A program made the translations under genes and the position numbers. The notes beneath the pieces are model-generated. The model made no database searches and was not told the origin of the DNA. It saw only the letters and a list, made by a program, of their open reading frames with translations. DNA of 64,000 bases from Heptranchias perlo (taxonomy: Eukaryota): contig NC_090345.1 of assembly GCF_035084215.1 (NCBI RefSeq), positions 48,608,001 to 48,672,000 of the forward strand, in the 5' to 3' direction. Below are positions 27,095 through 61,760 of this stretch, in pieces (positions within the stretch are counted from its first letter, which is position 1; every line of letters begins with the position of its first letter).

Positions 27095-27671
27095 GGGGGT
27101 GATTTTAGGAGGCAATTGCGGGTGCGTTGGAGGCGGGGGGTCTCTGAAAATCGCATCAGTCCCGTTCGGGTTCGGAAGCTGGCTTCAACCTAATAACTTC
27201 CGAGTTTCCCAGGGACCCACCTGTGTGCGTGCGGGCAACCCAAAAACAGAAGTCCTACCGGCAATTAAAGTCGGCAGGTTGACAGTTAAAGAGCCAAATG
27301 TACCTCATTGAGGTATTTAAGGTACTTTACCTGTGACAGATTCAGTACTTAGAAAGATTTTTAACTTATCTGGGCGGCTTGCCCACCACTTCTGATTCAC
27401 GCCTGGTGAAACCACACGTGAAGAGTAGGATCAGGGAACAAGAAACTAAATAAATTAAATAAAAAACCATGGAAGGAAGTGAAAACACTAAGTGAACCTA
27501 CCTTTGCACCCTGCTCTGATGTCCGATGTCTCCCGCTCCCCACCAAGTCCCCCTCTTCACCCCCCCGATCTTGCTCCGATGTCCCCCTCTTCACCCCCCC
27601 AATCTTGCCCCAATGTCCCCCTCTTCACCCCCCCGATCTTGCCCCGATGTCCCCCTCTTCACCCCCCGATC
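27095..27671. mobile_element. Partial MITE-like element with internal C-rich ~35-bp tandem repeats
   Basis: GGGGTGATTTT-type terminus; CCGATGTCCCC repeats resembling the array at 58483-58950; other end not found. Confidence 0.45.
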
Positions 27672-28245
27672 TTTTTTTTTTATTCGTTCATGGGATGTGG
27701 GTGTCGCTGGCGAGGCCGGCATTTATTGCCCATCCCTAATTGCCCTTGAGAAGGTGGTGGTGAGCCGCCTTCTTGAACCGCTGCAGTCCGTGTGGTGACG
27801 GTTCTCCCACAGTGCTGTTTGGAAGGGAGTTCCAGGATTTTGACCCAGCGACAATGAAGGAACGGCGATATATTTCCAAGTCGGGCTGGTGTGTGACTTG
27901 GAGGGGAACGTGCAGGTGGTGTTGTTCCCATGTGCCTGCTGCTCTTGTCCTTCTAGGTGGTAGAGGTCGTGGGTTTGGGAGGTGCTGTCGAAGAAGCCTT
28001 GGCGAGTTGCTGCAGTGCATCCTGTGGATGGTACACACTGCAGCCACAGTGCGCCGGTGGTGAATGGAGTGAATGTTTAGGGTGGTGGATGGGGTGCCAA
28101 TCAAGCGGGCTGCTTTGTCCTGGATGGTGTCGAGCTTCTTGAGTGTTGTTGGAGCTGCACTCATCCAGGCAAGTGGAGAGTATTCCATCACACTCCTGAC
28201 TTGTGCCTTGTAGATGGTGGAAAGGCTTTGGGGAGTCAGGAGGTG
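27672..28245 (-). mobile_element. 3' fragment of the LINE family seen at 50816-54109
   Basis: Closely similar to 50816-51390 (MEYSPLAWMSAAPTTLKKLD...). Confidence 0.92.
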
Positions 28246-31539: not shown

Positions 31540-33090
31540 GCATTCCATTGGGCTTGTTAATGGCTGTCCTGGATTTGGAGGAGGGAGACGACTTGCACCT
31601 CAGGTGTCCATCCACAGGCAGCCCAGAATTTACAGTTCCCGACCCAGGCAGAACTACTTGGCAATGTCTTAAGAAACCTGCAATCACCATCTATGCTTCA
31701 CCGAGTTGTGCCGTCTACTGGAACCTGACCTACAGACTACATCTGGCACATGGACAGCCCTGCCTGTTGTGGTGAAAGTCACCATCACATTGAGCTTTTA
31801 TGGCACTTTCCCCTTGGAGAGGGCCCAGCACTTCTGCCAAGTGGTTGGGATTCCATATGTGCAGGGCCTCATTGATGGCACTAATGGAGCCATCAAGGTG
31901 CCTGACAATAATCACATGGTATAGAGAATTGGACAATATTCCATTCCATCAACATCTGGTTGGTCTCAAGCCATCACAACAGAATAATGTAGGTGACAAT
32001 AAGATACCTGGCGGGTAGATGATGCTTTTCATCCGGTTACAGCTCACAATGCGAGCACTATTTAAACAAGCAAGCAGACTGGACAATTGGCAGCTGGGGA
32101 AACAAGTCATGAACCCCTTGCTGCTCTGACCATTAACACAAGTCATGAACCCCTTGCTGCTCTGACCATTAACACAAGTCATGAACCCCTTGCTGCTCTG
32201 ACCGTTAACACAAGTCATGAACCCCTTGCTGCTCTGACCGTTAACATAAGTCATGAACTCCTTGCTGCTCTGACCGTTAACACAAGTCATGAACCCCTTG
32301 CTGCTCTGACCCTTAACACAAGTCATGAACTCCTTGCTGCTCTGACCGTTAACACAAGTCATGAACCCCTTGCTGCTCTGACCATTAACACAAGTCATGA
32401 ACCCCTTGCTGCTCTGACCATTAACACAAGTCATGAACCCCTTGCTGCTCTGACCATTAACACAAGTCATGAACCCCTTGCTGCTCTGACCGTTAACACA
32501 AGTCATGAACTCCTTGCTGCTCTGACCATTAACACAAGTCATGAACCCCTTGCTGCTCTGACCATTAACACAAGTCATGAACCCCTTGCTGCTCTGACCA
32601 TTAACACAAGTCATAAACCCCTTGCTGCTCTGACCATTAACACAAGTCATGAACCCCTTGCTGCTCTGACCATTAACACAAGTCATAAACCCCTTGCTGC
32701 TCTGACCATTAACACAAGTCATGAACCCCTTGCTGCTCTGACCATTAACATGTCAGGAACCCCCAGACCAAGGCAGAGAGAAAGTGCAATGAAGATCATG
32801 TATCCACCTGAATTCTGCAGGAACATACGATCGAGATGTTGAAGCAGCACTTCCACTATCTGGACAGATCAGCCGGTTATCTACTCTACATTTCCTAGAA
32901 ACATCTGTATCTACTGTGTGCTGCATAATTCTGTCATTCTTAGGGGAGGCCCCATGCAGTCAGAGGGGCTGGAGGTTGGGCCAAGAGCCTTGTCTTGGCT
33001 AGAGGAGGAGGAAGGCTCTCTGGGCGAGACTGGTGCAAGGCCAGGTAGACTGGTTTGTCAAAGACTGATTGACAGTATTTCCTGTTAAAA
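31540..33090 (+). pseudogene. Degraded PIF/Harbinger (HARBI1-like) transposase
   Basis: ALPVVVKVTITLSFY, GIPYVQGLIDGT and a downstream CVLHN-like motif; frameshifted; boundaries approximate. Confidence 0.7.
32102..32750. repeat. 36-bp minisatellite (ACAAGTCATGAACCCCTTGCTGCTCTGACCATTAAC)n, ~18 copies, inside the transposase remnant
   Basis: Unit read directly. Confidence 0.97.
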
Positions 33091-34524: not shown

Positions 34525-34708
34525 TGATGTGGAGATGCCGGTGATGGACTGGGGTTGACAATTGTAAACAATTTTACAACACCAAGTTATAGTCCAGCAA
34601 TTTTATTTTAAATTCACAAGCTTTCGGAGGCTATCAGGAAGGAGGAAGCCTCCGAAAGCTTGTGAATTTAAAATAAAATTGCTGGACTATAACTTGGTGT
34701 TGTAAAAT
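34525..34708. mobile_element. Short Penelope-like insertion with inverted termini
   Basis: 62-bp perfect inverted repeat (34571-34632 / 34647-34708); flanking direct repeat CAAGATCTA (34516-24, 34709-17). Family assignment from recalled PLE terminal structure. Confidence 0.7.
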
Positions 34709-39423: not shown

Positions 39424-40489
39424 GTGGGTCCAGACTACAGTGTACAGTATGGCCATAGCTGCTATTAATGTAACAGACAGTTGCTTGGTAAAAATATTAA
39501 GGGTCATTTTCTGACTTTACGCTCCCATGTGGAACCACAACTCCCAGGACTGCATATTGGAAATTTGATTTCATGACTATTTTGGTCGCACCTGCATTTC
39601 TGATAAGCCCAGTGGGTAAGGCTCCCCTTCAACAGCGTGAAGTCAGAATGTTATCCCTATTGTGTTTACCTATAGCACGTTTACACTGCAGGTGCCAGCC
39701 TGAGACTAGTAGCTTCAGTTCAGGGTCCAGGCAAGCAGAACCCTGCTTATTTTGCTTGGCTCCTGTCTGGCTGGAAGTTGAGAGAGAGCTCTCTCCAAAC
39801 AGTTAGAAATTTAAATGATAATAGAGTGCAGAGGGGAGAGTCTCCGCTTTTAAACATCTAAATTTAGGTAGGATGGATTTTATAAGTGTCCAGGAGGTTA
39901 AACAGAGCCCCCGAGCACTTTGGATCCCATGGCTGTACGCTCAATGTGTTGTAAAACCAAAGCTGTGTGAGACTACCCCCTCTAGGACTTTCACTTCACT
40001 GTGCTCCAGAGCCAAGAGGACTAAGCTGACAGTGTAAATACACCTGAAGAGTATAGACTCTGTAAAAATCATTCACAGCTTCACACTGCAGCATCACCAT
40101 GGGTGAGCTGAGCTCATATAATCTCAAACTAAATACCTGAAAAATCTCTTTCTAACTGGAGTAAGTTTGAGGCAGTGCCTTGTGCTGGATATCACTTTGT
40201 TTCAGATTGTTGCATTAGTCAGTTGCAAAGCCTTGGTAAAACTAGTTGCACTGTGATATTAACTTTAAACTCATCTGTCTGCTTTAACTTGGTAGATTTT
40301 TTTTCTAGAATACAATAAACTTAAAGTTACAACACAACTGGAAAGACAATTAAGTTGCCTATATGAGTGATGATTTGTATTGTTTAGCCTGAAGTACATT
40401 GCCAAAGAATAATAGTATGTATCACCAATCAGCCTTCCAGTTTGTTTTTATATGTACCTAACTAAATCTATGACATTTGTGTTACCCAG

Positions 40490-40623
40490 CATGCACCAAG
40501 ATACCACAGGGTACGTCTGTCTCCTGATTCAGCCAACCAAGAAGGAGGATGCTGGTTGGTATACTGTGTCTGCTAAAAATGAAGCAGGAATAGTGTCTTG
40601 TACAGCCAGACTGGATTTATATG
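40490..40623 (+). CDS. MYPN: Myopalladin penultimate exon (SMHQDTTGYVCLLIQPTKKEDAGWYTVSAKNEAGIVSCTARLDLY), Ig5
   Basis: CAG acceptor, GTTAGT donor, 134 nt, phase 2/1; absent from the ORF track. Confidence 0.95.
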
Positions 40624-41200: not shown

Positions 41201-41629
41201 TCGGGGTCCTATGATGTACATACTACTGTCAAGAGAATGAGTGATGGGCCTATTTCCAGAGCACTGCCAGTGCCTTTACCATTCCAAATAACAGGTGTGA
41301 AAATTCACTCAGAATAATGGAGGTAAAGGTGGCATTGCCATATTTTGTAGGTCATTTTTCAATGTTTATTAATGCACTGCACATTTCTATTAAACAAGTC
41401 CTTATCACAACCATGCCCAAAATTTGATACAAGTTGCCACTAGTTGCCTGACTCACCGAAACAGGACAACAGCACAGCATCTGTGGCATGTGGACAAATT
41501 CACACTGATGCTATCAGGGTACTCTTGTTATGATAAGGCTAAGGTATATTGTTGGAGAATAGTGAACAGAGTTTTCTTCTGCTTGATGCTGACATTGTGG
41601 GTGAACACAATGTTAATGCAGTCAAGAAA

Positions 41630-41774
41630 TCAAATTTTTGGGATACATAACTAAGGGTATGTCTTATAAATCTAAGAAGATGATGTTGAAGTTGTAGCTG
41701 GCCTTGGTGAAACTGCATCTGGAGTACTGGGTTTAGTTTTGGCCTCCATATTACAGGAAAGAAGTAGAGTTCAT
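41630..41774 (+). mobile_element. Old CR1 fragment, left part (host of the nested block)
   Basis: ALVKLHLEYWV-FWPPYYRKEVEF; reading continues at 61354. Confidence 0.75.
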
Positions 41775-41779
41775 TATAG

Positions 41780-42502
<723 letters not shown>

Positions 42503-42504
42503 GA

Positions 42505-42512
42505 CCCTCCTC
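42505..42512 (-). promoter_or_regulatory. Polypurine tract
   Basis: GAGGAGGG 2 nt upstream of the LTR TGTA, just after the env stop. Confidence 0.75.
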
Positions 42513-42828
42513 AAGTGGATCTGACTAATCTTTTGACCAATCCACTTCATACACCTTGAGCATTGTCCATGGGTGTTAAGTTTTCTTCGTCATTGGTTCA
42601 TGTTCCTGTGTAGGATGGGTTTGCTGTGACATACGCAAAAAGAATATTTCCTTGCCATGCTTGCAGATTAAACGTCACATTACACATAAGCAGATTATCA
42701 TAGTATACATTGCGTTCATTTTAAAGCCATACTAATCATTCTAACCCATGGGTTTTGTCCAACATTATATACTGTCTCCCACCACTCATGAGCACCCAGC
42801 ATGTTTATCGCTTTTTCTAAGCTCTCAT

Positions 42829-42919
42829 AGAGTCATAGAGTCATACAGCACGGATAGAGGCCCTTCGGCCCATCGTGTCCGCGCCGGCCATCAGCCCTGT
42901 CTACTCTAATCCCATATAA
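42829..42919 (-). mobile_element. ~90-bp CR1 3' end insertion
   Basis: Near-identical to 44647-44736; flanked by TCTCAT (42823-28, 42920-25). Confidence 0.9.
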
Positions 42920-44646
42920 TCTCATTGTCTTGCTGCATTTTTACAAGGCGCTTCTGTGAAGTTTAGTACGTTCTATGATGGATTTAAGACTCAAGGATAA
43001 TTGGATGTCCAAACCAGACCACGGCTTTCAGGGCCTCATGCTGCATTGATATATTAACTTGAATTGTGGTGATATCGTGGGTCACCATGGGTATCAGCAC
43101 GATATGATCTATCTTGGTCAATTCCGTCGGTACGAAACAAAAGGTTGGGGATTCTATGGGGCACACTTGATCGCCGTGCTCATAGGTGAATTTTGTGGTA
43201 GTTACACAATATTCCCCTCGTCCTAGATAAGACATTTTTCACCTGGTGGGCATCCCATGTCTGCAGTTGCACTGTGCACATAGGAGACTGGCCATCTAGG
43301 GTAGACCCACAGGCAGCTATGCCTGGGGTTGTGCTATCACACCTACATATCCAGGATCCTCTTGACCTGGTCCAACAATCCAGGCCAGGGCCTTCCCTGG
43401 AGCTCCCTTTTTCATAACCTGTTTGAGGAATCGTATAAATTCCTTATGCACATCCCCTTCAATAGTGCCGATGGATTCTACTTTAAACACTTCCCATTTT
43501 CCTTTTCTATTAACCATGGAAACCACATAACCACCGATAACAACCCACTCTCTGTTTCATTGTCTGCATCTCGGTTACACGGTCGCCGGGCATAATAATT
43601 CGACCCATATCTCCTAATTTTGTCGGTGCTATTCACATTTTTATGGTGTTTGAACCAATCCTTAAGGGTTTTATTACTTACAAAGTTGGGTACCCTATTA
43701 TTCTCAATATCCTCCAGGCCCTATTGTACTTGATTCGGTAAAAACCCTCCATACATAGCACAGGTAATGGCCTTTGACATGTTCTGATTGTGTAACATGT
43801 TATTATGTTGCTGGGTTATTTCATTAATCTTCCCTCTTAATCATTCCATCCACCATTTCCTTTATGGACTTCCGTCCTTCTTGTTGTTCCAGAATTTCAC
43901 CTCTCTGCCCTTTATTTGTTTTACTCATGTTTCCCTTCATTTGCTGTCTCATAACCTCATTGTGTTCCCACATGTTCTCTACGTCTATCTGGTTCCAGGC
44001 TGCTGTTCCAGCCGTGGCTCTGATCTCTAACCATTCTCCTAATTCTAGCCTCTTTCTACTGTGGGTTCCCGTACCATTGGTTATTGGGGTGGTTGTAACA
44101 TTGTCCCAGACAATATTAATCAAGGGTTCTTGAATGTCCAGGTGCCAAGGCTTATCCAGATCCTGGCCTGTATTTCTCTGGACAAAATCTTTAATCTGTT
44201 GTTCTACCAATGTTTGGTAAAATTCTTTGTGTTTTGGGTCACATAGGTACAATCTCATACCTCACATTATTATACAGTGCCTCGTGGGTGCGAGTTACTC
44301 CCAGACCATTCTTGGAGCCTGGCGTCTGTGGAGGGCACAATATTTTGGTCACCCTCCGTCAAAGGGGCTTTGCTATAAAGATTGCTAGCCCTCCCCGATA
44401 GCCATATTTATAAAAGATGGTGCCACAGCTAAACAGTCCGTTATGTCTTTTATTAAATGCCGGCCGATTTAAATCGTTTTCTCCATTATCCTCTTTTTCA
44501 GGGATGGTTTCCATGGAGTTGGGCACCCTTACCTGTCCCACCTTCTCAATAAGAGGGCCTAGTATGATAGCATGCCCCAAGTCATCCATTTCCTTCTTCC
44601 ACCAGATCAGGGGAAGTTGTTTGGCATTCTGTTCTTTTTTGAACCT

Positions 44647-45886
44647 AGAGTCATAGAGTTATACAGCACGGATAGAGGCCCTTCGGCCCATCGTGTCCGC
44701 GCCGGCCATCAGCCCTGTCTACTCTAATCCCATATTCCAGCATTTGGTCCGTAGCCTTGTATGCTATGGCATTTCAAGTGCTCATCCAAATGCTTCTTGA
44801 ATGTTGTGAGGGTTCCTGCCTCCACAACCCTTTCAGGCAGTGAGTTCCAGACTCCAACCACCCTCTGGGTGAAAAAGTTCTTTCTCAAATCCCCTCTAAA
44901 CCTCCCGCCTTTTACCTTGAATCTATGTCCCCTTGTTATAGAACCCTCAACGAAGGGAAAAAGCTCCTTAGTATCCATCCTATCTGTGCCCCTCATAATT
45001 TTGTACACCTCAATCATGTCCCCCCTCAGCCTCCTCTGCTCCAAGGAAAACAAACCCAATCTTCCCAGTCTCTCTTCATAGCTGAAGCGCTCCAGCCCTG
45101 GTAACATCCTGGTGAATCTCCTCTGCACCCTCTCCAAAGCGATCACATCCTTCCTGTAGTGTGGCGACCAGAACTGCACACAGTACTCCAGCTGTGGCCT
45201 AACCAGTGTTTTATACAGCTCCATCATAACCTCCTTGCTCTTATATTCTATGCCTCGGCTAATAAAGGCAAGTATCCCATATGCCTTCTTTACCACCTTA
45301 TCTACCTGTTCCGCCGCCTTCAGGGATCTGTGAACTTGCACACCAAGATCCCTCTGACCCTCTGTCTTGCCTAGGGTCCTCCCATTCATTGTGTATTCCC
45401 TTGCCTTGTTAGTCCCTCCAAAGTGCATCACCTCGCACTTTTCCGGGTTAAATTCCATTTGCCACTGTTCCGCCCATCTGACCAACCCATCTATATCGTC
45501 CTGCAGACTGAGGCTATCCTCGCTATTTACCACCCTACCAATTTTTGTATCATCAGCGAACTTACTGATCATACCTTTTACATTCATATCCAAGTCATTA
45601 ATGTAGACCACAAACAGCAAGGGACCCAGCACCGATCCCTGTGGTACCCCACTGGCCACAGGCTTCCAGTCACAAAAACAACCTTCGACCATCACCCTCT
45701 GCCTTCTGCCACTAAGCCAGTTTTGTATCCAAAGTGCCAAGGCACCCTGGATTCCATGGGCTCGTACCTTCTTGACCAGTCTCCTGTGGGGGACTTTATC
45801 GAAGGCCTTACTGAAATCCATGTATACCACATCCATTGCGTTACCCTCATCCACACGCCTAGTCACCCCCTCAAAAAATTCAATGT
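44647..45886 (-). mobile_element. Young 5'-truncated CR1 with uninterrupted RT C-terminal half
   Basis: YMDFSKAFDKVPH, SGVPQGSVLGP, KFADDTK; probable TSD AACCT (44642-46, 45887-91). Confidence 0.95.
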
Positions 45887-46209
45887 AACCTGACGCCTGT
45901 TCCTCCGTGATCAAGCCGTAAGGTTCCCAGCCATGTCTTTGTTCTATTCCCTGATATTGCCCACGTCTGCCCTTTATCCTCACTACCTTGGTATGCCTCA
46001 TGCTACATTCTTCACTTTTTACTTGATATCCATTTACATACAATATTAACATACATATTATCATTACAAACAGTAATTTCATTCTTGCTGATGTTTCGTT
46101 TGCCTCAAGTCGACCGAGGACAAAACAAAACACATGGATAATGTCTGCTCTTGGTTAATATCTTATTTTTTTAAAATTCAGTTTAATGTAAATGTCTTCT
46201 ATTTACATA

Positions 46210-48020
46210 TCATAAACGTCTTTGTCTGTGATTCCATGGAGTGTACCTATCAGGTGGACGGACCGGCCTTTGTCTCAGTCGCCTAGGACTGGGGGCTCTC
46301 TGTCTTACCACAGGTGGGTGTAATAGGTCATTCTCCTCGTCCCATAGCATAGGAGGGAGGTGAGTGACCTCTTCCTCCATTGGACTGATTACACCACATA
46401 CACCTCCCTTGTACTCTTTTAGTTGGTTGACATGGAGCCATTTTCCTTTGCCCTTTTTCAGGGTTACTTTGTACACAGATGGACTGGCTTTATCCACAAT
46501 GGGATATGGTCCAGAAAAGTGAGCCACGAATGGCCCTGCTGATGGGTACATTTTTACCATCACTGTCTGTCCCACGTCCCATTCTATTGCTTTGACTTAG
46601 GTGTCAAAATATATTTTGCTGGTCTTTTTAGATTGTCCAATATTGGCGGCTGCAAAGACCATTGTCTGTTGCAGCTGGTCACGTAATTGGTTACCATACT
46701 GCTCCTGAGTCAAGGCTTGATACTGAGGCTCAGACATATCCTGATACATCAAATTTTCATGGGTTCTCATCACTCTCCATCTCATTAACTCATGGGGTGA
46801 AACCTTGATGGTACCCGTGACTCAGTGGATCTCATAGCCATTAATGCCAAGGGCAGCAATTGGTCCCATGTTTTGCGGAATTGTTCAATCAACTTCTTTA
46901 GCATTGTTTTTAATGTTCAGTTCATGCTCTCCACTATGCCTGATGAGGTTGGATTATGTGAAATATGGAATCTTGTTTTGATTCCTAGCAGCTGCATAGC
47001 AGTTTGCATCACCCTCCTCCTAAAATGACTACCTTGGTCCAAGTGTACGCTGGACTTTGGGAGTCCCCATCTGGTGAATATGTGGTTCACCAGTATTTTA
47101 GCTGTGGCCTGTGCTGTTCCATTAGGCTTGGAAATGCTTCTACCCACTTGGAGAATGTGTCTACTACCCACCAATACATACCGATTACCTCGAGAGGAAT
47201 GGGGAAAGGGCCCAATATAATCTATCTGTAGATGTGTCCAAGGGTCGGCTGTCGGCCGAGTGTGGTGTAACAGTGCCTTCTTGGTATTCACATCCGGGTT
47301 GTGTTGTATATAAATTAAACAGTTGTGACAATAATGCTGCACCTGGTTTTTCATTTCTGGCCACCATGTTACTTGCTGGAGCCTTTCTAATGTTCCCTGT
47401 GGACTAGGGTGTCCTGAGTTGGGTGCATCGTGAGCTTGGTAATGAAAAGCATCGTGCTCATTCTGTGGTACCGCCCACTTTTGATCATACAGCAGGATCC
47501 CATCTTTCACCTTTAATTTGAGCTGATTAGCATATTCTCCCCTTGGGCTTTTTTTCTTTTCTAGCATCACCAAGACTGCCTTTATTTCAGGATCCTCTTG
47601 TAATTATTTCAAATCGATTGGGTCAGCCAACTTCTCAGGCTGATTAGTTTCCATCGGGGGAAACATTTCTATCGGATCCCAATTTGTTCCCTCCTCTCCT
47701 CCTTTCTTAGCCAATTCGTCTGCTTTCTGATTTCCCTCCCTAGAGGCTCATTCTTAGTGTGAGCTATGACTCTAGTTGGGAACTCAACTGGATGTGTGAC
47801 CACATACACTACAGCTGCCAACTCAGCTGCTTGCGCAGACATATGTGCAGGCAGTCTAATAGCTAATTCTATTTGTTTGGCCAGGTCATATATTCCACAT
47901 CCTGTCTTCTTTTGTCCGTTCTCTACTGGATCCATCGCCATATATATATTGAGTGTCAGGCAACACTCCTGCTCTTATTGGACCTTTGTGTTGGTTTTGA
48001 TTGGCCACCTTAGACTGATG
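46210..48020 (-). pseudogene. pol: pol remnant: RNase H and integrase (protease and RT not found)
   Basis: IYGDGS, SAQAAELAAV; HDAPNSGH...CHNC zinc finger; WTHLQIDYIGP, DQGSHF, SSGIVE; FSGPYPIV and LHVNQLK (GPY/F module). Confidence 0.9.
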
Positions 48021-48699
48021 TTTTTTGCGTAATACATCAGATTTCCTTCTATCACCGTGGGGAACTATCTACTTTATTAAGAAACCTAAAATTTTTTTAC
48101 ACTTGACCAAAGCAAAGAATTACCATTTTAACCGAAACAAACCCAACAAAATACATCGAGAAAAACATGGGAGAGACTGGCTAGGTTTTCTGTCTTATCT
48201 TCCAAGGTCTGGCTCTCTCTTTTGTGCTAAGCTGGCAGCCCGTCTGACATTAACCCTGTCTATTCTGCATACACATCTACACAGGACAGCTCAATTTGGA
48301 ATTTCCAACTCAAATCCTTCTCTTTGTGTTTTTAAGATGTAACCACATTAAGAAAACTGTTCTATAAATGGTCAAAGTGATTTGAAACAAGCAAAGCAAC
48401 GAACACCCAAGCTAAAGAAAAATTCTCTGGCTTGTAACAGGATAGAGATGGAATCTTCCCTTTTCCCTTTCCTCCTGATTGAAATCCTGTGTTATCCTTT
48501 ATCTCTGAACTCCATTTTCAATCTCCGAGGTTTCCTACTTAACTCAACTTTGAACCAATTTAACATCTCATGGGAAAGACCTTTTGTCAGGCTGGTATTG
48601 ACTCTCCTGATTAAAGGTTTTCTCTGTTGCTGGAAGGATGGGATATAGTGAATGGAAAGGGGGGACTGGGAAACCGCTGCAGGGATCTAGTCTCTTTCT

Positions 48700-49660
48700 C
48701 GATTCACTTTCTAGAACCTCTACAACTGCCTCTCTCACTCCTCCAACTCCCAGACCATCATTACACTGGTCACATTTTCCCTTTTCACTCTCAGCTTTGA
48801 GACGGTCCCTTTCTACAGAACCTTTCTATGCTTCTGAACTAGCTACTGCTGCTCGTTGGTGAACAACCTCATCTCTAAATTGCTGCATTTCCTTCTCGTG
48901 CTTCTATATATAACTTTCTGCTTATTTTTTTTTTTCCTTTAACTCTTCCTTTAACTGAGTGACCTGCTGACTGAGCGTGGAGGCAGCAACTGTAACGGGG
49001 GTCTGTTTTAATGATCCAGGCTCGTCACCTAAAACTGCAATCACGCGTTGCAAGCCTCTTGGCCCTAATTCATGTCGGTTTTGTATCGTTTGTCTAAAGC
49101 TACTCTTTAGGCCATCCCTATTTAATTCCACCTCACCCAGATTATTCTGTAATTCCAGTACATTTCATGCCAATACTTCACATCTTTGACTTCTCTCTAT
49201 CAAGGCCTCCACAATATTGTTTGCCGTAGTTAATGTAAGATGCTCTGACAATTGGCCCTCCTGCTCCTGTTCCTTCTTTGAGACATCTTTCATTAGATCA
49301 CCCACTTTGGCCTCACTCCTCCACACACAGAAATGAGAGACACACCCGAACAGTCACCTCACCGATTCCCTTTTCATTCCTGGGCTGCTATCTTATCGTT
49401 TCTCCCTCCTTCCTTTCAGAATGTCTAACAACCGTCTCACTGCTTTCTTTTTCGTACCAAGGCCACTGTCTTTTTGTTTACTGAAGGCAAGGAGCCATAC
49501 AGCTTTAGCCTTTTAAAAAAATGTTGGCTTCTCTGCTTTTATATGTATCCACGTATCATCTGCTGTCTGCTTCAAAGGGTCTGCCTGATGGTCCTCAACC
49601 AGGGACCATTCCTCACTCTTTGGTAGCTTCTTTGCTATGTATTTTTGAACTGCCATTTCC
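48700..49660 (-). pseudogene. gag: Probable gag remnant
   Basis: Position after the leader; broken frame starting MAVQKYIAKK, coiled-coil-like LSQQVTQLKEELKEKK, partial CDQC; no clear capsid motif recognised. Confidence 0.5.
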
Positions 49661-50051
49661 ATTTTATATTCCACCCCCTTTACCTGTCCTTTAATTGATA
49701 CCTTCTGTTTCTATCTAAACCGTTCCAGTGTAATTTTTGTTACAACCCTCCAACCCCTCTTCCCAGAAAAACGATATTTCTGTCTGGACGCTGGACTAGG
49801 ATTTTTTTATATATACCTTCCACCCGTTCCGAGCTGTTTTCTGTCTAAACGAGGCTCCAGTATATAGTCCATGTGCTTCTGCCCAAAAAGCCCTGTTTTC
49901 TGTCTAAGCGTTGGACAGTGTTCTTTCTTTACCCTGCCTGTTATACCCTCCTATGCCTCTCTGGACATTGGGAAGGAGGGTATAACAGAGCCTCTGCTCT
50001 GTGGGATAATTTCACGTGAACTTGTACACTTTCTTTGTTGAACGATGTCAG

Positions 50052-50069
50052 GTCCCTGTTCTGGTGTTA
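50052..50069 (-). promoter_or_regulatory. Degenerate primer-binding site, tRNA-Lys(UUU) type
   Basis: TAACACCAGAACAGGGAC versus TGGCGCCCGAACAGGGAC (14/18), 2 nt after the LTR terminal CA. Confidence 0.8.
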
Positions 50070-50815
50070 CTTGTAACAAAATGATTTACTTCCCAGTGAT
50101 TCGTGAACCTGGACAATCGTTCAGACAAAGAAATACACCCTGATGTGGTAATTTCGATAATCAAAGTGATTATTTCATGATTTAAAAAGGGCGTATAAGT
50201 ATGATGCAACTCAATCAATATGTGCCTTACTCTACTCGATTCCTACGAGCAGGCATAAAGCAAAAGAAGCAAGTAACACATACAACCTTCATAAAGCATC
50301 AAGGCAGCCTTCCAGGTCTCGCATTAAGGTGTCGATTGCTGCGGTGATTGCTGCGTCGATTGCTGCGTCGATTGCTGCATCGATTGCTGCGTCGATTGCT
50401 GCGGTGATTGCTGCGTCGATTGCTGCATCGATTGCTGCGTCGATTGCTGCATCGATTGCTGCGTCGATTGCTGCATCGATTGCTGCGGTGATTGCTGCAT
50501 CGATTGCTGCATCGATTGCTGTGGTGATTGCTGCATCGATTGCTGCGGTGATTGCTGCATCGATTGCTGCAGTGATTGCTGCGTCGATTGCTGCATCAAT
50601 TGCTGCGGTGATTGCTGCGTCGATTGCTGCGGTGATTGCTGCGTCGATTGCTGCGGTGATTGCTGCGTCGATTGCTGCATCGATTGCTGCGGTGATTGCT
50701 GCGTCGATTGCTGCGGTGATTGCTGCGTCGATTGCTGCATCGATTGCTGCGGTGATTGCTGCGTCGATTGCTGCATCGATTGCTGCGGTGATTGCTGCGG
50801 TGATAGCAGCGGTGA

Positions 50816-53800
50816 TTTTTTAAAAATTCATCCATGGGATGTGGGCGTCGCTGGCAAGGCCAGCATTTATTGCCCATCCCTAATTGCCCTCGAGAAGGTG
50901 GTGGTGAGCCGCCTTCTTGAACCGCTGCAGTCCGTGTGGTGAAGGTTCTCCCACAGTGCTGTTAGGAAGGGAGTTCCAGGATTTTGACCCAGTGACGATG
51001 AAGGAACGGTGATATATTTCCAAGTCGGGATGGTGTGTGACTTGGAGGGGAACGTGCAGGTGGTGTTGTTCCCATGTGCCTGCTGCTCTTGTCCTTCTAG
51101 TTGATAGAGGTTATGGGTTTGGGAGGTGCTGTCGAAGAAGCCTTGGCGAGTTGCTGCAGTGCATCCTGTGGATGGTACACACTGCAGCCACTGTGCGCCG
51201 GTGGTGAAGGGAGTGAATGTTTAGGGTGGTGGATGAGGTGCCAATCAAGCGGTCTGCTTTATCTTGGATGGTGTCGAGCTTCTTGAGTGTTGTTGGAGCT
51301 GCACTCATCCAGGCAAGTGGAGAGTATTCCATCACACTCCTGACTAGTGCCTTGTAGATGGTGGAAAGGCTTTGGGGAGTCAGGAGGTGAGTTACTCGCC
51401 ACAGAATACCCAGCCTCTGACCTGCTCTCGTAGCCACAGTATTTATATGGCTGGTCCAGTTAAGTTTCTGGTCAATGGTGACCACCAGGATGTTGATGGT
51501 GGGGGATTCGGCGATGGTAATGCCGTTGAATGTCAAGGGGAGGTGGTTAGACTCTCTCTTGTTGGAGATGATCATTGCCTGGCACTTATCTGGCGCGAAT
51601 GTTACGTGCCATTTATGAGCCCAAGCCTGGATGTTGTCCAGGTCTTGCTGCATGCGGACACAGACTGCTTCATTATTTGAGGGGTTGCGAATGGAACTGA
51701 ACACTGTGCAATCAACAGCGAACATCCCCATTTCTGACCTTATGATGGAGGAAAGGTCATTGATGAAGCAGCTGAAGATGGTTGGGCCTAGGACACTGCC
51801 CTGAGGAACTCCTGCAGCAATGCCCTGGGGCTGAGATGATTGGCCTCCAACAACCACTAACATCTTCCTTTGTGCTAGGTATGACTCCAGCCACTGGAGA
51901 GTTTTCCCCCTGATTCCCATTGACTTCAATTTTACTAGGGCTCCTTGGTGCCACATTCGGTCAAATGCTGCCTTGATGTCAAGGGCAGTCACTCTCACCT
52001 CACCTCTGGAATTCAGCTCTTTTGTCCATGTTTGGACCAAGGCTGTAATGAGGTCTGGAGCCGAGTGGTCCTGGTGGAACCCAAACTGAGCATCGGTGAG
52101 CAGGTTATTGGTGAGTAAGTGCCGCTTGATAGCACTGTCGACGACACCTTCCATCACTTTGCTGATGATTGAGAGTAGACTGATGGGATGGTAATTGGCC
52201 GGATTGGATTTGTCCTGCTTTTTGTGGACAGGACATACCTGGGCAATTTTCCACATTGTCGGGTAGATGCCAGTGTTGTAGCTGTACTGGAACAGCTTGG
52301 TTAGAGGCGCCGCTCGTTCTGGAGCACAAATCTTCAGCATTACAGCCGGGATGTTGTCGGGGCCCATAGCCTTTGCTGTATCCAGTGCACTCAGCCGTTT
52401 CTTGATATCACGTGGAGTGAATCGAATTGGCCGATGACTGGCTTCCGTGATGGTGGGGATATCGGGAGGAGGCCGCGATGGATTATCCACTCGGCACTTC
52501 TGGCTGAAGATGGTTGCAAACGCTTCAGCCTTGTCTTTTGCACTCACGTGCTGGACTCCGCCATCATTGAGGATGGGGATGTTTACAGAGCCTCCTCCTC
52601 CCGTTAGTTGTTTAATTGTCCACCACCATTCACGACTGGATGTGGCAGGACTGCAGAGCTTTGATCTGATCTGTTGGTTGTTGAATCGCTTAGCTCTGTC
52701 TATAGCATGTTGCTTCCGCTGTTTAGCATGCATGTAGTCCTGAGTTGTAGCTTCATCAGTTTGGCACCTCATTTTTAGGTACGCCTGGTGCTGCTCCTGG
52801 CATGCTCTTCTACACTCCTCATTGAACCAGGGTTGATCCCCTGGCTTGTTGGTAATGGTAGAGTGAGGAATATGCCGGGCCATGAGGTTACAGATTGTGC
52901 TGGAATACAATTCTGCTGCTGCTGATGGCCCACAGCACCTCATTGATGCCCAGTTTTGAGCTGCTAGATCTGTTCTGAGTTTATCCCATTTAGCACGGTG
53001 GTAGTGCCATACAACACATTGGATGGTGTCCTCAGTGTGAAGACGGGACTTCATCTCCACAAGGACTGTGCGGTGGTCACTCCTACCAATACTGTCATGG
53101 AAAGATGCATTTGCGACAGGTAGATTGGTGAGGACGAGGTCAAGTAAGTTTTTCCCTTGTGTTGGTTCGCTCACCACCTGCCGCAGGCCCAGTCTGGCAG
53201 CTATGTCCTTCAGGACTCGGCCAGCTCGGTCAGTAGTGGTGCTACCAAGCCACTCTTGGTGATGGACATTGAAGTCCCCCACCCAGAGTAGATTCTGTGC
53301 CCTTGCTACCTTCAGTGCTTCCTCCAAGTGGTGCTCAACATGGAGGAGGACTGATTCATCAGCTGAGGGAGGACGTTAGGTGGTAATCAGCAGGAGGTTT
53401 CCTTGCCCATGTTTGACCTGATGCCAGGAGATTTCATGGGGTCCAGAGTCAATGTTGAGGACTCCCAGGACCACTCCCTCCTGACTGTATATCACTGTAC
53501 CGCCACCTCTGGTCGCTCTGTCCTGCCGGTGGGACAGGACATACCCAGGGATGGTAATGGAAGATTCTGGGACGTTGGCTGAAAGGTATGATTCTGTGAG
53601 TATGGCTATGTCAGGCTGTTGCTTGACTAGTCTGTGAGACAGCTCTCCCAATTTCGGCACAAGTCCCCAGATGTTAGTGAGGAGGACTTTGCAGGGTCGA
53701 GTGGGCTTGGTTTGCCGTTGTCGTGTCCGGTGCCTAGTGGTCCGATGCCGGGTGGTCCGTCCGGTTTTATTCTTATTGTGACTTTTCGTGACGAGATTTT

Positions 53801-54109
53801 ACAACTGAGTGGCTTGCTAGGCCATTTCAGAGGGCAATTAAGAATCAACCACATTGCTGTGGGTTTGGAGTCACATATACGCCAGACCGGGTAAGGACGG
53901 CAGGTTTCCTTCCCTAAAGGACATTAGTGAACCAGATGGGTTTTTACGACAATCCGGTAGTTTCATGGCCACCGTTACTGATACTAGTATTTTAATTCTA
54001 GATTTTTTATTTAATTAATTGAATTTAAATTCGCCAGCTGCCATGGCGGGATTTGAACTCATGACTCTGGATTTTAGTCCAGGAACATAACCACTATGCT
54101 ACCGTACCC
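50816..54109 (-). mobile_element. Apparently full-length 3.3-kb LINE (APE + RT, CR1/L2-group) with tRNA-derived head; inactive copy
   Basis: ILTESYL, VGDFNVHH, LDLVLTN, ALDIKAAFD, GVPQGSVLGP; stops at 53376 (YRPP to *RPP) and 51111; catalytic FADD reads FAVD. Confidence 0.93.
54035..54109 (-). promoter_or_regulatory. tRNA-like Pol III promoter head of the LINE
   Basis: A box TAGCATAGTGG (54091-54101) and B box GTTCAAATCC (54049-54058). Confidence 0.8.
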
Positions 54110-55905
54110 TGGGATTGCTGCGGCGATTGCTGCGTCGATTGCTGCGGCGATTGCTGCGTCGATTGCTGCGTCGATTGCTGCGGCGATTGCTGCCTCGATT
54201 GCTGCGGTGATTGCTGCGTCGATTGCTGCCTCGATTGCTGCGGTGATTGCTGCGGTAATTGCTGCGGTGATTGCTGCCTCGATTGCTGCGGTGATTGCTG
54301 CATCGATTGCTGCCTCGATTGCTGCAGTGATTGCTGCGGTGATTGCTGCGGTGATTGCTGCATCGATTGCTGCGGTGATTGCTGCGTCGATTGCTGCGTC
54401 GATTGCTGCGGTGATTGCTGCCTCGATTGCTGCGGTGATTGCTGCCTCGATTTCTGCGTCGATTGCTGCAGTGATTGCTGCCTCGATTGCTGCATCGATT
54501 GCTGCGTCGATTGCTGCGGTGATTGCTGCCTCGATTGCTGCGGTGATTGCTGCCTCGATTGCTGCGTCGATTGCTGCGGTGATTGCTGCGTCGATTGCTG
54601 CGTCGATTGCTGCGTTGATTGCTGCGGTAATTGCTGCGTCGATTGCTGCGTCGATTGCTGCGGTGATTGCTGCGTCGATTGCTGCGTCGATTGCTGCGTC
54701 GTTTGCTGCGGTGATTGCTGCCTCGATTGCTGCGGTGATTGCTGCCTCGATTGCTGCGGTGATTGCTGCCTCGATTGCTGCGGTGATTGCTGCGGTGATT
54801 GCTGCGTCGATTGCGGCGGTGATTGCTGCGGTGATTGCTGCGTCGATTGCTGCGTCGATTGCTGCGTCGTTTGCTGCGGTGATTGCTGCCTCGATTGCTG
54901 CGTCGATTGCTGCGGTGATTGCTGCCTCGATTGCTGCGGTGATTGCTGCGTCGATTGCTGCGTCGATGGCTGCGTCGATTGCTGCGGTGATTGCTGCGTC
55001 GATTGCTGCGTCGATTGCTGCGTCGTTTGCTGCGGTGATTGCTGCCTCGATTGCTGCGTCGATTGCTGCGGTGATTGCTGCCTCGATTGCTGCGTCGATT
55101 GCTGCGGTGATTGCTGCGTCGATTGCTGCGTCGATTGCTGCGTCGATGGCTGCGTCGATTGCTGCGTCGATTGCTGCGTCGATTGCTGCGTCGATTGCTG
55201 CGGTGATTGCTGCGTCGATTGCTGCGGTGATTGCTGCGTCGTTTGCAGCGGTGATTGCTGCGGTGATTGCTGCGTCGATTGCTGCGGTGATTGCTGCGGT
55301 GATTGCTGCGTCGATTGCTGCGGTGATTGCTGCGTCGTTTGCAGCGGTGATTGCTGCGGTGATTGCTGCGTCGATTGCTGCGGTGATTGCTGCGTCGATT
55401 GCTGCGTCGATAGCTGCGTCGATAGCTGCGTCGATTGCTGCGGTGATTGCTGCGTCGATTGCTGCGGTGATCGCTGCGTCGATTGCTGCGGTGATTGCTG
55501 CGTCGATTGCTGCGGTGATTGCTGCGTCGATTGCTGCGGTGATTGCTGCTTCGATTGCTGCCTCGATTGCTGCGTCGATTGCTTCGTCGAATGAAGTGTC
55601 GAGTTTCATTATCTGCTCATCAAGGTTTGTCTTCTCATCAAAGTTCTTTGTCTTCTCATTGAGGTTTTTCTCTTCGTCAAAGTTCAGAAGCAAAGTATTG
55701 AAGTGCTCATTGATGGAGGAGCTCACACCGCAGTAATTGTTCAACTGTTCCTCCTGCAACTGTTGATTGTTGAAACTGTTACAATGTCCTATCTTTATAT
55801 GATTCTGAGCGAATAGGGTGTGATCCAAGTTACGAGCAGTGCCATCTTGGCCACTCACCCATCGTTGTATTAATGATTGATGGTTGGTTGGACCACTCGA
55901 GAATC

Positions 55906-58037
55906 GTGTGAATCCACTGTATCAACTTCTCCCTGTGAATCCACTGTATCTACTTCTCCCTGTGAATCCACTGTATCTACTTCTCTGTGTGAATCCACTG
56001 TATCTACTTCTCCCTGTGAATCCACTGTATCTACTTCTCCCTTATGAATCCACTGTATCTACTTCTCCCTGTGAATCCACTGTATCTACTTCTCTGTGTG
56101 AATCCACTGTATCCACTTCTCCCTGTGAACCCACTGTATCTTCTCCCTGTGAATCCACTGTATCTTCTTCTCCCTGTGAATCCACTGTATCTACTTCTCC
56201 CTGTAAATCCACTGTATCTACTTCTCCCTGTGAATCCACTGTATCTTCTTCTCCCTGTGAATCCACTGTATCTACTTCTCCCTGTGAATCCACTGTATCT
56301 ACTTCTCTGTGTGAATCCACTGTATCTACTTCTCCCTGTGAATCCACTGTATCTACTTCTCCCTTATGAATCCACTGTATCTACTTCTCCCTTATGAATC
56401 CACTGTATCTACTTCTCCCTGTGAATCCACTGTATCTACTTCTCCCTGTGAATCCACTGTATCTACTTCTCCCTGTGAATCCACTGTATCTACTTCTCCC
56501 TGTGAATCCACTGTATCTACTTCTCCCTGTGAATCCACTGTATCTACTTCTCCCTGTGAATCCACTGTATCTACTTCTCCCTGTGAATCCACTGTATCTA
56601 CTTCTCCCTGTGAATCCACTGTATCTACTTCTCCCTGTGAATCCACTGTATCTACTTCTCCCTGTGAATCCACTGTATCTACTTCTCTGTGTGAATCCAC
56701 TGTATCAACTTCTCCCTGTGAATCCACTGTATCTACTTCTCTGTGTGAATCCACTGTATCTACTTCTCCCTGTGAATCCACTGTATCAACTTCTCCCTGT
56801 GAATCCTCTGTATCTACTTCTCCCTGTGAATCCACTGTATCTACTTCTCTGTGTGAATCCACTGTATCTACTTCTCCCTGTGAATCCACTGTATCTACTT
56901 CTCCCTGTGAATCCACTGTATCTACTTCTCTGTGTGAATCCACTGTATCCACTTCTCCCTGTGAACCCACTGTATCTTCTCCCTGTGAATCCACTGTATC
57001 TTCTTCTCCCTGTGAATCCACTGTATCTACTTCTCCCTGTGAATCCACTGTATCTTCTTCTCCCTGTGAATCCACTGTATCTACTTCTCCCTGTGAATCC
57101 ACTGTATCTACTTCTCCCTGTGAATCCACTGTATCTACTTCTCTGTGTGAATCCACTGTATCAACTTCTCCCTGTGAATCCACTGTATCTACTTCTCCCT
57201 GTGAATCCACTGTATCTACTTCTCCGTGTGAATCCACTGTATCTACTTCTCTGTGTGAATCCACTGTATCTACTTCTCTGTGTGAATCCACTGTATCTAC
57301 TTCTCCCTGTGAATCCACTGTATCTTCTTCTCCGTGTGAATCCACTGTATCTACTTCTCCCTGTGAATCCACTGTATCTTCTTCTCCCTGTGAATCCACT
57401 GTATCTACTTCTCCCTGTGAATCCACTGTATCTTCTCTGTGTGAATCCACTGTATCTACTTCTCCCTGTGAATCCACTGTATCTTCTTCTCCGTGTGAAT
57501 CCACTGTATCTACTTCTCCCTGTGAATCCACTGTATCTACTTCTCCCTGTGAATCCACTGTATCTACTTCTCCCTGTGAATCCACTGTATCTACTTCTCC
57601 CTGTGAATCCACTGTATCTTCTTCTCCCTGTGAATCCACTGTATCAACTTCTCCCTGTGAATCCACTGTATCTACTTCTCCCTGTGAATCCACTGTATCT
57701 TCTTCTCCCTGTGAATCCACTGTATCTTCTTCTCCCTGTGAATCCACTGTATCTTCTTCTCCCTGTGAATCCACTGTATCTACTTCTCCCTGTGAATCCA
57801 CTGTATCTACTTCTCCCTGTGAATCCACTGTATCTACTTCTCCCTGTGAATCCACTGTATCTTCTTCTCCCTGTGAATCCACTGTATCTACTTCTCCCTG
57901 TGAATCCACTGTATCTACTTCTCCCTGTGAATCCACTGTATCTACTTCTCCCTGTGAATCCACTGTATCTACTTCTCCGTGTGAATCCACTGTATCGACT
58001 TCTCCCTGTGAATCCACTGTATCTACTTCTCCCTGTG
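55906..58037. repeat. 27-bp minisatellite (GTGAATCCACTGTATCTACTTCTCCCT)n, ~79 copies, inside the 5' LTR
   Basis: Unit read directly; single copy in the 3' LTR at ~42473-42499. Confidence 0.98.
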
Positions 58038-58439
58038 AGTCCAGGTGCATTTTAAGGAGCTGTTTTGTTTTGAGAACGGACGTTATTAGAGCCTTCTCGA
58101 AGCTTCCCTACAGCTGTCGTCTTATCAGTTGTTTGTCCTTTGCAATTGTTGTATGACCTGAAGACCAGTTTAAACTCTCTCGAAGCTTCTCGAAGTTGAT
58201 TACATCTTCTGTCTTTCATGCTTATCAGTTGTTATTGAAAACCGCAGCTTCTGGAAGTTTTGTACTTTGCTGCTTTCGCAGTTTTAAACTGATGTCCAAA
58301 TGTCCAGTTTTGAACTGCATGCACTTTGCAGGTTTGAATTTATACTGTCCAAATTTCCAAATGTTCCAGGGGCAAGTTAACCCTTGCTTTCACACGTACT
58401 GTCCAAGTGAATGTCCAAAGCCTTAAAGGGACTCATTAA

Positions 58440-59283
58440 ACCTGATTCGTCAGGTAGGTTTTAAGTTCAAAAGAGTAAAATGGGATCTCCAACTCCCCGA
58501 TGTCCCCTCTCCGATCTCCAACTCCCCGATGTCCCCTCTCCGATCTCCAACTCCCCGATGTCCCCTCTCCGATCTCCAACTCCCCGATGTCCTCTCTCCG
58601 ATCTCCAACTCCCCGATGTCCCCTCTCCGATCTCCAACTTCCCGATGTCCTCTCTCCGATCTCCAACTCCCCGATGTCCCCTCTCCGATCTCCAACTCCC
58701 CGATGTCCCCTCTCCGATCTCCAACTCCCCGATGTCCTCTCAACGATCTCCAACTCCCCGATGTCCCCTCTCCGATCTCCAACTCCCCGATGTCCTCTCT
58801 CCGATCTCCAACTCCCCGATGTCCCCTCTCCGATCTCCAACTTCCCGATGTCCTCTCTCCGATCTCCAACTCCCCGATGTCCCCTCTCCGATCTCCAACT
58901 CCCCAATGTTCCCTCTCCAATCTCCAACTCTCGATGTCCAACTCCCCCATTGTTGAGCCCCTGATGACCCCCCCCATAATCGCCAACCCCCCCCCTCGAT
59001 GTTGTCCACATCCCCCCACCTCACCCCCCTCCAATTTTTCTCAAGCCCCGTGAGCTCTCTCTCTCTTTCTCCCACCCCCCTCTCTGATTTGCAGTTCCTT
59101 TCACTGCTGACTGACAGCCAACCTGTCAATCTGGCAGCCGAGCGTGGGAAACCCAGAAGCCACATTAAGGGCCTCCAATTAAGTCGCAATCGCGTGGAAT
59201 GAGGTAAGAATTTTTTCCCCGGGTTTCCCGTGTGCCCATTCCCCACCCCCCCCCCACACCCGCTGAGATCCCACTGCCATGCC
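58440..59283. mobile_element. Partial MITE-like element containing a 29-bp array (CTCCAACTCCCCGATGTCCCCTCTCCGAT)n, ~16 copies at 58483-58950
   Basis: Array read directly; resemblance to 27095-27671; element identity inferred. Confidence 0.6.
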
Positions 59284-61333
59284 CCTGAAGTCTTGAAGGT
59301 TTTTATGGAGAATATCGTTAGGGACTCCATTATCTACACTGAACATACCAAACGCAAGACAGTCACTGAACGTGCCAAACGCAAGACGGTCACTGAACGT
59401 GCCAAACGCAAGACGGTCACTGAACGTGCCAAACGCAAGACGGTCACTGAACATGCCAAACACAAGATGGTCACTGAACGTGCCAAATGCAAGACGGTCA
59501 CTGAACGTGCCAAACACAAGACAGTCACTGAACGTGCCAAATGCAAGACGGTCACTGAACGTGCCAAACACAAGACAGTCACTGAACGTGCCAAATGCAA
59601 GACGGTCACTGAACGTGCCAAACACAAGACGGTCACTGAACGTGCCAAACACAAGACGGTCACTGAACATGCCAAACACAAGATGGTCACTGAACGTGCC
59701 AAATGCAAGACGGTCACTGAACGTGCCAAACACAAGACAGTCACTGAACGTGCCAAACACAAGACGGTCACTGAACATGCCAAACACAAGATGGTCACTG
59801 AACGTGCCAAACACAAGACGGTCACTGAACATGCCAAACACAAGATGGTCACTGAACGTGCCAAATGCAAGATGGTCACTGAACGTGCCAAACACAAGAC
59901 AGTCACTGAACGTGCCAAACACAAGATGGTCACTGAACGTGCCAAACACAAGACGGTCACTGAACATGCCAAACACAAGACCGTCACTGAATATGCCAAA
60001 CACAAGACAGTCACTGAATATGCCAAACGCAAGACATCACTGAACGTGCCAAACGCAAGACAGTCACTGAATATGCCAAACACAAGATAGTCACTGAACA
60101 TGCCAAACGCAAGACATCACTGAACGTGCCAAACGCAAGACAGTCACTGAATATGCCAAACACAAGATAGTCACTGAATATGCCAAATGCAAGACAGTCA
60201 CTGAACATGCCAAACGCAAGACATCACTGAACGTGCCAAAAGCAAGACAGTCACTGAATATGCCAAACGCAAGACAGTCACTGAACATGCCAAACGCAAG
60301 ACATCACTGAACGTGCCAAACGCAAGACAGTCACTGAATATGCCAAATGCAAGACAGTCACTGAACATGCCAAACACAAGATGGTCACTGAACATGCCAA
60401 ACACAAGATGGTCACTGAACGTGCCAAATGCAAGACGGTCACTGAACGTGCCAAACACAAGACGGTCACTGAACGTGCCAAACACAAGACGGTCACTGAA
60501 CGTGCCAAACACAAGACGGTCACTGAACGTGCCAAATGCAAGACGGTCACTGAACGTGCCAAACACAAGACGGTCACTGAACGTGCCAAATGCAAGACAG
60601 TCACTGAACGTGCCAAACACAAGATGGTCACTGAACGTGCCAAACACAAGACGGTCACTGAACATGCCAAACACAAGATGGTCACTGAACATGCCAAACA
60701 CAAGATGGTCACTGAACGTGCCAAATGCAAGACGGTCACTGAACATGCCAAACACAAGACGGTCACTGAACGTGCCAAATGCAAGACGGTCACTGAACAT
60801 GCCAAATGCAAGACAGTCACTGAACGTGCCAAACACAAGACAGTCACTGAACGTGCCAAATGCAAGACAGTCACTGAACGTGCCAAACACAAGATGGTCA
60901 CTGAACGTGCCAAACACAAGACGGTCACTGAACATGCCAAACACAAGATGGTCACTGAACGTGCCAAATGCAAGACGGTCACTGAACATGCCAAACACAA
61001 GACAGTCACTGAACGTGCCAAACACAAGATGGTCACTGAACGTGCCAAACACAAGACGGTCACTGAACATGCCAAACACAAGACCGTCACTGAATATGCC
61101 AAACACAAGACAGTCACTGAATATGCCAAACGCAAGACAGTCACTGAACATGCCAAACGCAAGACATCACTGAACGTGCCAAACGCAAGACAGTCACTGA
61201 ATATGCCAAACACAAGATAGTCACTGAATATGCCAAACGCAAGACAGTCACTGAACATGCCAAATGTAAGACAGTCACTGCCATGGATGTCCTGAAATGG
61301 CAGAGGCGAATCCCCTATAGGTTCGATGGTTGG
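59284..61333 (+). pseudogene. H4: Histone H4 retrocopy, C-terminal part, with internal tandem expansion
   Basis: [26 protein letters not shown]...(array)...[21 protein letters not shown] versus H4 [46 protein letters not shown]. Confidence 0.92.
59337..61280. repeat. 27-bp minisatellite (CACTGAACRTGCCAAAYRCAAGAYRGT)n, ~72 copies, derived from H4 codons TEHAKRKTV
   Basis: Unit read directly; flanked on both sides by H4 coding sequence. Confidence 0.97.
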
Positions 61334-61340
61334 AAAAGAC

Positions 61341-61760
61341 AAGTAGAGTTCATGGAGGGAGACCGGAGGAGAGCTGCAAGGCCTTCATGAGGGGCTGAGT
61401 TATAGGAAATATAATTCATTCTGGGGTTTTACCCTCATGAGAAGCGGAAGATCAGGGGGAACTTGAGAGATAAAACTTTCAGAGATACAGAGAAGCTAGA
61501 TCAGTGAGAGTTCCTCTGTCAGGCACGTGATTCACCCATTAGGAAACACGGGGATAGTTAAAGGTGTCAAAGGAAAATAGGAAATTCAAGCAACTTTTTC
61601 TCAGTAAGAGGGTGATAGAATTGTGAAACAGATTACCAGTCGAAGTGGTAGAACAGAAAACCATGCCAGGTTTAAAAAAGGACAGGATAAATTCCAGTTA
61701 AGAAAGGGGATACAGGGATACTAGTTCGAGAATCACAGTAAGGAACCTGATGGGATGTTT
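61341..61760 (+). mobile_element. Old CR1 fragment, right part
   Basis: Continues the fragment ending at 41774 (VEFMEGDRRRAAR...GLSY, later FFSVRG-like); starts with the second copy of the 13-bp repeat. Confidence 0.75.

Follow-up and report, generated by a model that had tools for sequence, protein, structure and literature searches.

According to the model of Haber and Louis (1998), as described in PMC3389668, minisatellites are born between direct repeats of 5–10 bp, and Wei et al. (PMC13167724) report that microhomology-mediated tandem duplication is frequent and for the most part neutral. Ahmed and Liang (2012; PMC3389668) give transposons as the source of 7,276 of 31,472 human arrays. 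For RNAs that are not polyadenylated, Noll et al. (2015; PMC5322556) report 51 tailless histone retropseudogenes in human, using as criteria 3ʹ truncation, the absence of oligo(A), at most 15 nt from the element end to the target-site duplication, a TT/AAAA target, and mobilisation by a relaxed L1. In that survey, tailless 5S and U2 copies were confined, among the vertebrates screened, to therians and an anole, and the retroposition route for non-polyadenylated RNA is reported in it for therian mammals and a lizard only. A 2026 preprint (10.64898/2026.06.26.734816) counts 14,081 retrocopies in cartilaginous fishes, so retrocopies as such are common in these animals. No histone-derived minisatellite was found in the literature searched, which comprised titles and the openings of abstracts and was thin on subscription journals, nor in the passages of PMC7754599 and PMC4935994 that contain the word "histone". 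Comparable cases may be present in the supplementary tables that accompany the 2026 preprint and the survey by Noll et al. (2015).

Herein, we analysed a 64,000-nucleotide window of the Heptranchias perlo genome (NC_090345.1, 48,608,001–48,672,000), in which, as we judge with good confidence, a neutral 27-bp minisatellite was born within a dead histone H4 retrocopy by known processes acting in dead DNA. As in the model of Haber and Louis, a segment once present as a single copy, with a short direct repeat at its ends, appears to have been duplicated and expanded in neutral, non-coding sequence. In contrast to other births between direct repeats, the seed consists of nine codons of a near-invariant protein, so that the ancestral amino acid is known at each position. 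The locus also resembles transposon-derived minisatellites, in that the array would have arisen on the spot from a sequence that was retroposed and non-functional and whose flanks stay in register, whereas the donor here is a retrocopy of a host gene and not a transposon. The array and its flanks, all on the + strand, are as follows.

59281..59337, + strand: H4 codons 55–73, degraded, with 9 of 19 codons changed, each by one base from the H4 residue
59337..61280, + strand: 27-bp minisatellite of 72 units plus a terminal CACTG, the unit corresponding to H4 codons 74–82
61277..61333, + strand: H4 codons 83–87 and 91–103, with codons 88–90 deleted and TGG at the stop position (61331–61333)

TRF gave a period of 27 and 72.2 copies for 59337–61280, and cutting the array at CACTG yielded 72 units (67 of 27 bp and five of 26 bp) of 22 types, which bears out the copy number of about 72 in an earlier, sequence-only reading of this DNA. 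The units are arranged head to tail and lie within the 10–100 bp size range of minisatellites, so the array qualifies as one. When the 64-kb window was searched with a degenerate unit pattern, all 72 matches fell inside the array, and none was obtained in 100 shuffles. The array length represents one allele, all seven listed sequencing runs coming from one sample.

On the sequence evidence, the H4 ancestry of the unit, as first proposed, is certain. Both flanks of the array are in H4 register, with codons 55–73 on the left and 83–103 on the right; positions 59290–59370 matched H4 residues 58–84 with an E value of 3e-9 (against PDB), and the right end of the array matched residues 74–103 with a 3-residue gap and an E value of about 0.01. 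In a codon-by-codon comparison, with the H4 protein returned by the protein search as reference, 16 of the 38 flank codons were changed, and the 9-bp deletion and the loss of the stop likewise depict the decay of a pseudogene. The earlier statement that the unit is exactly TEHAKRKTV applies to the inferred seed, and not to the present units, as TEHAKRKTV is encoded by none of the 72 and the commonest translation is TERAKHKTV (17 of 72).

CACTG is present at both ends of the seed (TAC|ACT|G and GTC|ACT|G), each copy being part of its own H4 codons. This microhomology, which the sequence-only reading had noted, does bound the seed and fits the known model; taken alone it carries little weight, since a stretch of 310 bp of window DNA outside the arrays contains a mean of 7.2 repeats of 5 bp at a spacing of 20–40 bp (2000 samples), and pairs of this type are so common by chance that the microhomology permits the model without proving it. 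A 10-mer, CACTGCCATG, occurs both at 59273–59282, where the H4 similarity resumes, and at 61276–61285, at the right end of the array; we regard this pair as chance or repair microhomology.

Variation between the units is concentrated, with three dinucleotides holding 126 of the 128 differences from the consensus among the 67 full-length units. At unit positions 17–18 (Arg79), the 72 units have CG in 16, CA in 39, TG in 16, and AG in one, and these positions behave as a decaying CpG. The states CG, CA, and TG also occur at positions 24–25. The counts at positions 8–9 are CG 41, CA 20, TA 11, and TG 0 of 72; as H4 requires His here, the CpG was gained from the His codon CAT and then spread to the majority, and is no decaying CpG. 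The A-to-G change creating this CpG is carried by 41 of the 72 units, and the ancestral CpG of Arg79 is kept in 16. The sequence-only reading had placed the variation mainly at CpG/TpG positions, a description that the gained CpG at positions 8–9 corrects. Two of the three variable sites alter only amino acids that are conserved in H4.

No 26-bp unit precedes unit 26 (60012), which is itself 26 bp long, and all five 26-bp units shift the frame; therefore the initial 25 units keep the H4 frame, as had been noticed. The GACCGT variant is restricted to units 24 and 65, which lie 1103 bp apart, and units 18–25 differ from units 59–66 at only two positions at the same offset of 41 units (1103 bp). 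When the unit order was shuffled, none of 300 trials equalled this two-difference match (the best had four differences), a test that is overstated, as shuffling also erases local clustering. At both block sites, the rarest variant is followed by 26-bp units. The simple reading of the 1.1-kb block similarity, as against joined haplotypes, is block duplication, in agreement with the earlier proposal.

A 234-base contig identical to the window spans the dispersed repeat to the left, the H4 piece, and the first units in both DNA runs examined (of four), so the left junction is present in the reads. The contigs also carry the tandem joint of units. These bridging contigs back the assembly only, both DNA runs being from one sample.

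What the sequence-only reading missed is the 5ʹ half of H4 at 41801 and a target-site duplication, the latter indicating the route by which H4 arrived. The 5ʹ half lies 17.4 kb upstream of the array part on the same strand, and the whole H4 copy is spread over 19.6 kb. The features of this insertion and its surroundings are as follows.

40489..40622, + strand: last host exon seen, of a palladin/myopalladin-family gene, ending in a splice donor
41497..41774, + strand: upstream half of an old LINE fragment (the insertion target), whose alignment to other LINE copies of the window scored higher than 100 shuffles
41762..41774, + strand: left copy of the target-site duplication, AAGTAGAGTTCAT; 41758–41774 with a 2-base indel
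41775..41800, + strand: 26-nt leader between the left duplication copy and the H4 ATG
41801..41878, + strand: H4 codons 1–26, 24 of 26 identical, E value 4e-16
up to 41888, + strand: 10 bases after H4 codon 26, by eye resembling codons 27–31 with small deletions
41889..42502, − strand: first LTR of a provirus-like element (614 bp, 7-bp inverted ends TGTAGGG...CCCTACA), interrupting the H4 copy
50072..58043, − strand: second LTR, enlarged by a 12-bp array that itself contains a LINE, and by a 27-bp array at the outer end
58954..59281, no strand assigned: member of a dispersed repeat family, ending where the H4 similarity resumes
61341..61353, + strand: right copy of the target-site duplication, AAGTAGAGTTCAT, 7 nt past the H4 stop position; 61335–61353 when extended
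61341..61721, + strand: downstream half of the LINE fragment, resuming 1–2 bases past the end of the left half on two of three reference copies

The 13-mer is the longest sequence common to the 100 bases before the ATG and the 100 bases after the stop position. It occurs exactly twice in the 64-kb window, and only 20 of 20,000 random pairs of 100-base windows shared 13 bases or more. The duplication measures 13 bp exactly and 17 bp with a 2-base indel, which is inside the 8–35 nt range for retrocopies. On two reference copies, the halves of the target LINE, a putative CR1-type element for which the searches revealed a reverse-transcriptase frame, join at 1018/1020 and 1094/1097; on the third, they fail to meet (658 vs 734). 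The insert starts 26 nt upstream of the ATG and extends no more than 7 nt past the stop, with neither an A-tail nor a stem-loop, and we infer that the leader is the 5ʹ UTR of the source mRNA. Replication-dependent H4 genes have no introns, and intron loss is therefore no usable criterion for an H4 retrocopy. A histone stem-loop gave no Rfam match in the window and no motif match near 61333; neither the intact 103-codon frame nor the stem-loop of a functional H4 gene is found in the copy. Compared with histone H4 (PDB 1eqz chain D and others), residues 1–26, 55–87, and 91–103 are recognisable, and unlike an H4 gene, the copy is split, deleted, frameshifted, and without a stop. No other histone gene was detected in the window with an H3 query.

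The structure observed is that of a tailless H4 retrocopy, the RNA route being our interpretation of it. Like the histone copies of Noll et al. (2015), it would derive from a histone mRNA, is 3ʹ-truncated, lacks oligo(A), and has a target-site duplication, with a gap here of at most 7 nt. Those copies are 5ʹ-truncated and ascribed to the therian L1, whereas the copy in H. perlo keeps its ATG and leader, is split by 17.4 kb of later insertions, and has no TT/AAAA target. The insertion-site context is AG/AAGT (GG/AAAG when extended), and as the L1 target is absent, the copy works like this class but stays outside it. No L1 was identified in the window, and four other LINE insertions in the window had no clear long duplication. 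Whether a cartilaginous-fish LINE enzyme retroposes non-polyadenylated histone mRNA via internal priming seems to us evenly balanced. A chimera of the H4 piece with a LINE tail was considered and rejected, since the LINE continues upstream of the H4 5ʹ half.

The nesting of the later insertions was directly visible. The first LTR is paralogous to 50072–55883 (219 of 254 and 275 of 292 positions identical), and an integrase frame between the LTRs (46917–47603) has foamy-virus integrases as its best solved relatives. The halves of the LTR pair diverge unequally, with 86% and 94% identity. LINE insertions break up the LTR element (41889–58043), whose far outer end is unrecognisable and whose right junction was not found. 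The frame of one LINE (51114–53375) has a shark gene model as its closest named relative, 77% identical over one third of its length. LINE sequences at 50818–54112 and 27674–28245 belong to one young family (96% over 564 bp), and each lies inside a tandem array or borders one. The dispersed repeat is represented by about 1030–1060 contigs per DNA run, most of them 80–95% alike, one piece aligning to 58954–59281. Six-frame scoring of the window for codons 27–57 gave no convincing match, and codons 32–54 were not found.

Other origins of the H4 sequence have to be weighed against an RNA intermediate and a single insertion. Arrival as DNA, either as an orphan copy from a histone cluster or as a patch at a double-strand break, would leave the later history unchanged. 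The missing A-tail and TT/AAAA target would suit it, as would the fact that no LINE is assigned as mobiliser; however, the ends of the insert look mRNA-like, without promoter or downstream gene DNA, and the length of the duplication is that expected of a retrocopy, so we consider this origin unlikely. The two H4 pieces have decayed unequally: of the 26 codons of the 5ʹ piece, 2 were changed, whereas in the 3ʹ flanks 16 of the 38 were (Fisher p 0.004, or 0.011 when one terminal unit is included). This counts against one insertion, from which such a difference would not be predicted. Together with the missing codons 32–54 and the LTR right junction that was not found, this is what might be expected if the two pieces were unrelated copies of different age, the 13-mer being coincidental or due to LINE similarity. 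Yet the H4 parts are complementary, co-oriented, and in order, the 13-mer is confined to these two sites in the window, and the LINE halves rejoin within 1–2 bases on two of three references, which makes unrelated copies very unlikely; the unequal decay could result from local rate differences or from conversion of the 5ʹ piece. A high-copy repeat adjoins the H4 piece on the left, and the piece could accordingly be cargo of that dispersed family, or the unit a multi-locus satellite, with this site as one among many. We hold this to be fainter still, as the target-site duplication anchors the H4 piece here and the longest family piece among those listed stops at 59281, where H4 starts. Summed contig depth in two of the four DNA runs was about 9–21 over 59281–59328 and about 990–1200 at the array edge, against up to about 16,900 for the dispersed repeat. 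These depths fit a single H4 piece with an array about 100 units long, while being no measure of copy number; contigs resembling human DNA were excluded from them, which may conceal genuine H4 genes and copies close to H4.

The most remote of the readings considered is that the array has been recruited, either to encode a basic repeat protein of 261 codons derived from H4, or to control the host muscle gene as an element of variable length. An open frame of 261 codons, rich in lysine and arginine, does start from an ATG at 59305, the array lies on the sense strand of the host gene, and contigs of two runs guessed to be RNA (of three) carry array units. Against this, some units shift the frame, conserved positions are altered, and no promoter was seen. 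The array-unit contigs are uninformative on expression, because a 72-fold repeat passes the abundance filter (from intronic pre-mRNA or stray DNA) where unique flanks fail; none of the contigs in these two runs covers 59233–59312. Protein searches spoke in the same direction: a HMMER search of 1.84 billion representatives returned 474 matches, and in the 150 of them that were listed the nine-residue motif never stands next to a second copy of itself. The translated H4 piece with 25 units had no match at E 0.001 among 8000 candidates, a 41-residue translated piece had no match in the protein search, and the unit-junction pattern had none in metagenome contigs, a collection unlikely to contain this animal. 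Three H4-like database entries (P0009, P0011, and P0014) have internal partial duplications of 27–53 residues, which may be real or artefacts of annotation. If recruitment were true, the broken-up histone retrocopy would have given rise to a novel genetic element, transcribed in the sense direction within a muscle-gene intron.

Returning to the preferred reading, a neutral minisatellite in a dead retrocopy, we propose the following history. An old, presumably CR1-type LINE fragment would have lain in the probable last intron of the palladin/myopalladin-family gene. A LINE enzyme would then have reverse-transcribed H4 mRNA into this fragment, priming near the stop codon and leaving a 13–17 bp target-site duplication around an insert that starts 26 nt before the ATG and has neither stem-loop nor A-tail. 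Later, the provirus-like LTR element may have inserted after about codon 31, followed by LINEs and the dispersed repeat, with codons 32–54 lost and the halves left 17.4 kb apart; the nesting is observed, and the order is in part our reconstruction. Codons 74–82 could next have been duplicated between the two CACTG copies (Tyr-Thr-Glu and Val-Thr-Ala) by slippage or unequal exchange. The resulting dimer would have grown, through slippage, unequal exchange, or conversion, as units were copied locally and a block of about 41 units was duplicated at least once. Meanwhile, transitions switched three dinucleotides back and forth, a pattern that is itself seen in the units. The array would have neither product nor function and would be a record of local repeat making, as would the two LTR arrays nearby. 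The nesting, the duplication, the register, the decay, and the block structure on which this account draws were observed directly.

The setting of the retrocopy is a gene of the palladin/myopalladin family, of which six Ig-domain exons lie at 12727–40622 on the + strand, the same as the H4 copy. A splice donor closes the last exon seen. No final exon was found downstream of it, four C-terminal motifs giving no matches beyond 40500 within the window; the retrocopy is therefore probably in the last intron. Nine long tandem arrays occupy 16.7 of the 64 kb. The 12-bp arrays at 50331–50817 and 54113–55590 and the 27-bp array at 55907–58043 are all in the second LTR, and the first LTR keeps their seeds at 42143–42502, where the 12-mer is present in about three degenerate copies and the 27-mer once. 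The members of an LTR pair are identical at integration, and both second-LTR arrays therefore arose afterwards. As unexpanded seeds are visible in the other LTR, arrays here grow from any sequence present. With a seed that was already a pseudogene, nine long arrays in the window, and the seeds of two neighbours in view, the view of the sequence-only reading that the H4 array is unusual finds no support as regards its kind.

The mechanism is ordinary, with no new one involved, and it is the record that is unusually complete. The origins of long-minisatellite units are usually unrecoverable, whereas three arrays within 11 kb here have known seeds; the H4 protein fixes the ancestral state of one, and the LTR twin dates the births of the other two to after integration. 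The locus is thus a clean test case for unit birth and for the spread of variants, and it adds a tailless histone retrocopy in H. perlo. Annotators should be warned that such H4 pieces yield false histone gene models.

Further repeats were seen elsewhere in the window. A 25-bp array of at least 346 copies at 1–8640, upstream of the first host exon seen, runs past the window start, has a strong C-over-G skew, and fades into ATCC repeats. A coding origin was tried for the 36-bp array at 32102 and rejected, with no Pfam matches in four flanking frames. A stretch of 138 bp at 34571–34708 is self-complementary, with 91% identity to its own reverse complement. The C-rich arrays at 27547–27673 (34-bp units) and 58484–58939 (29-bp units) have a common core, CCCCGATGTCCCC, which suggests repeated births from one dispersed element family.
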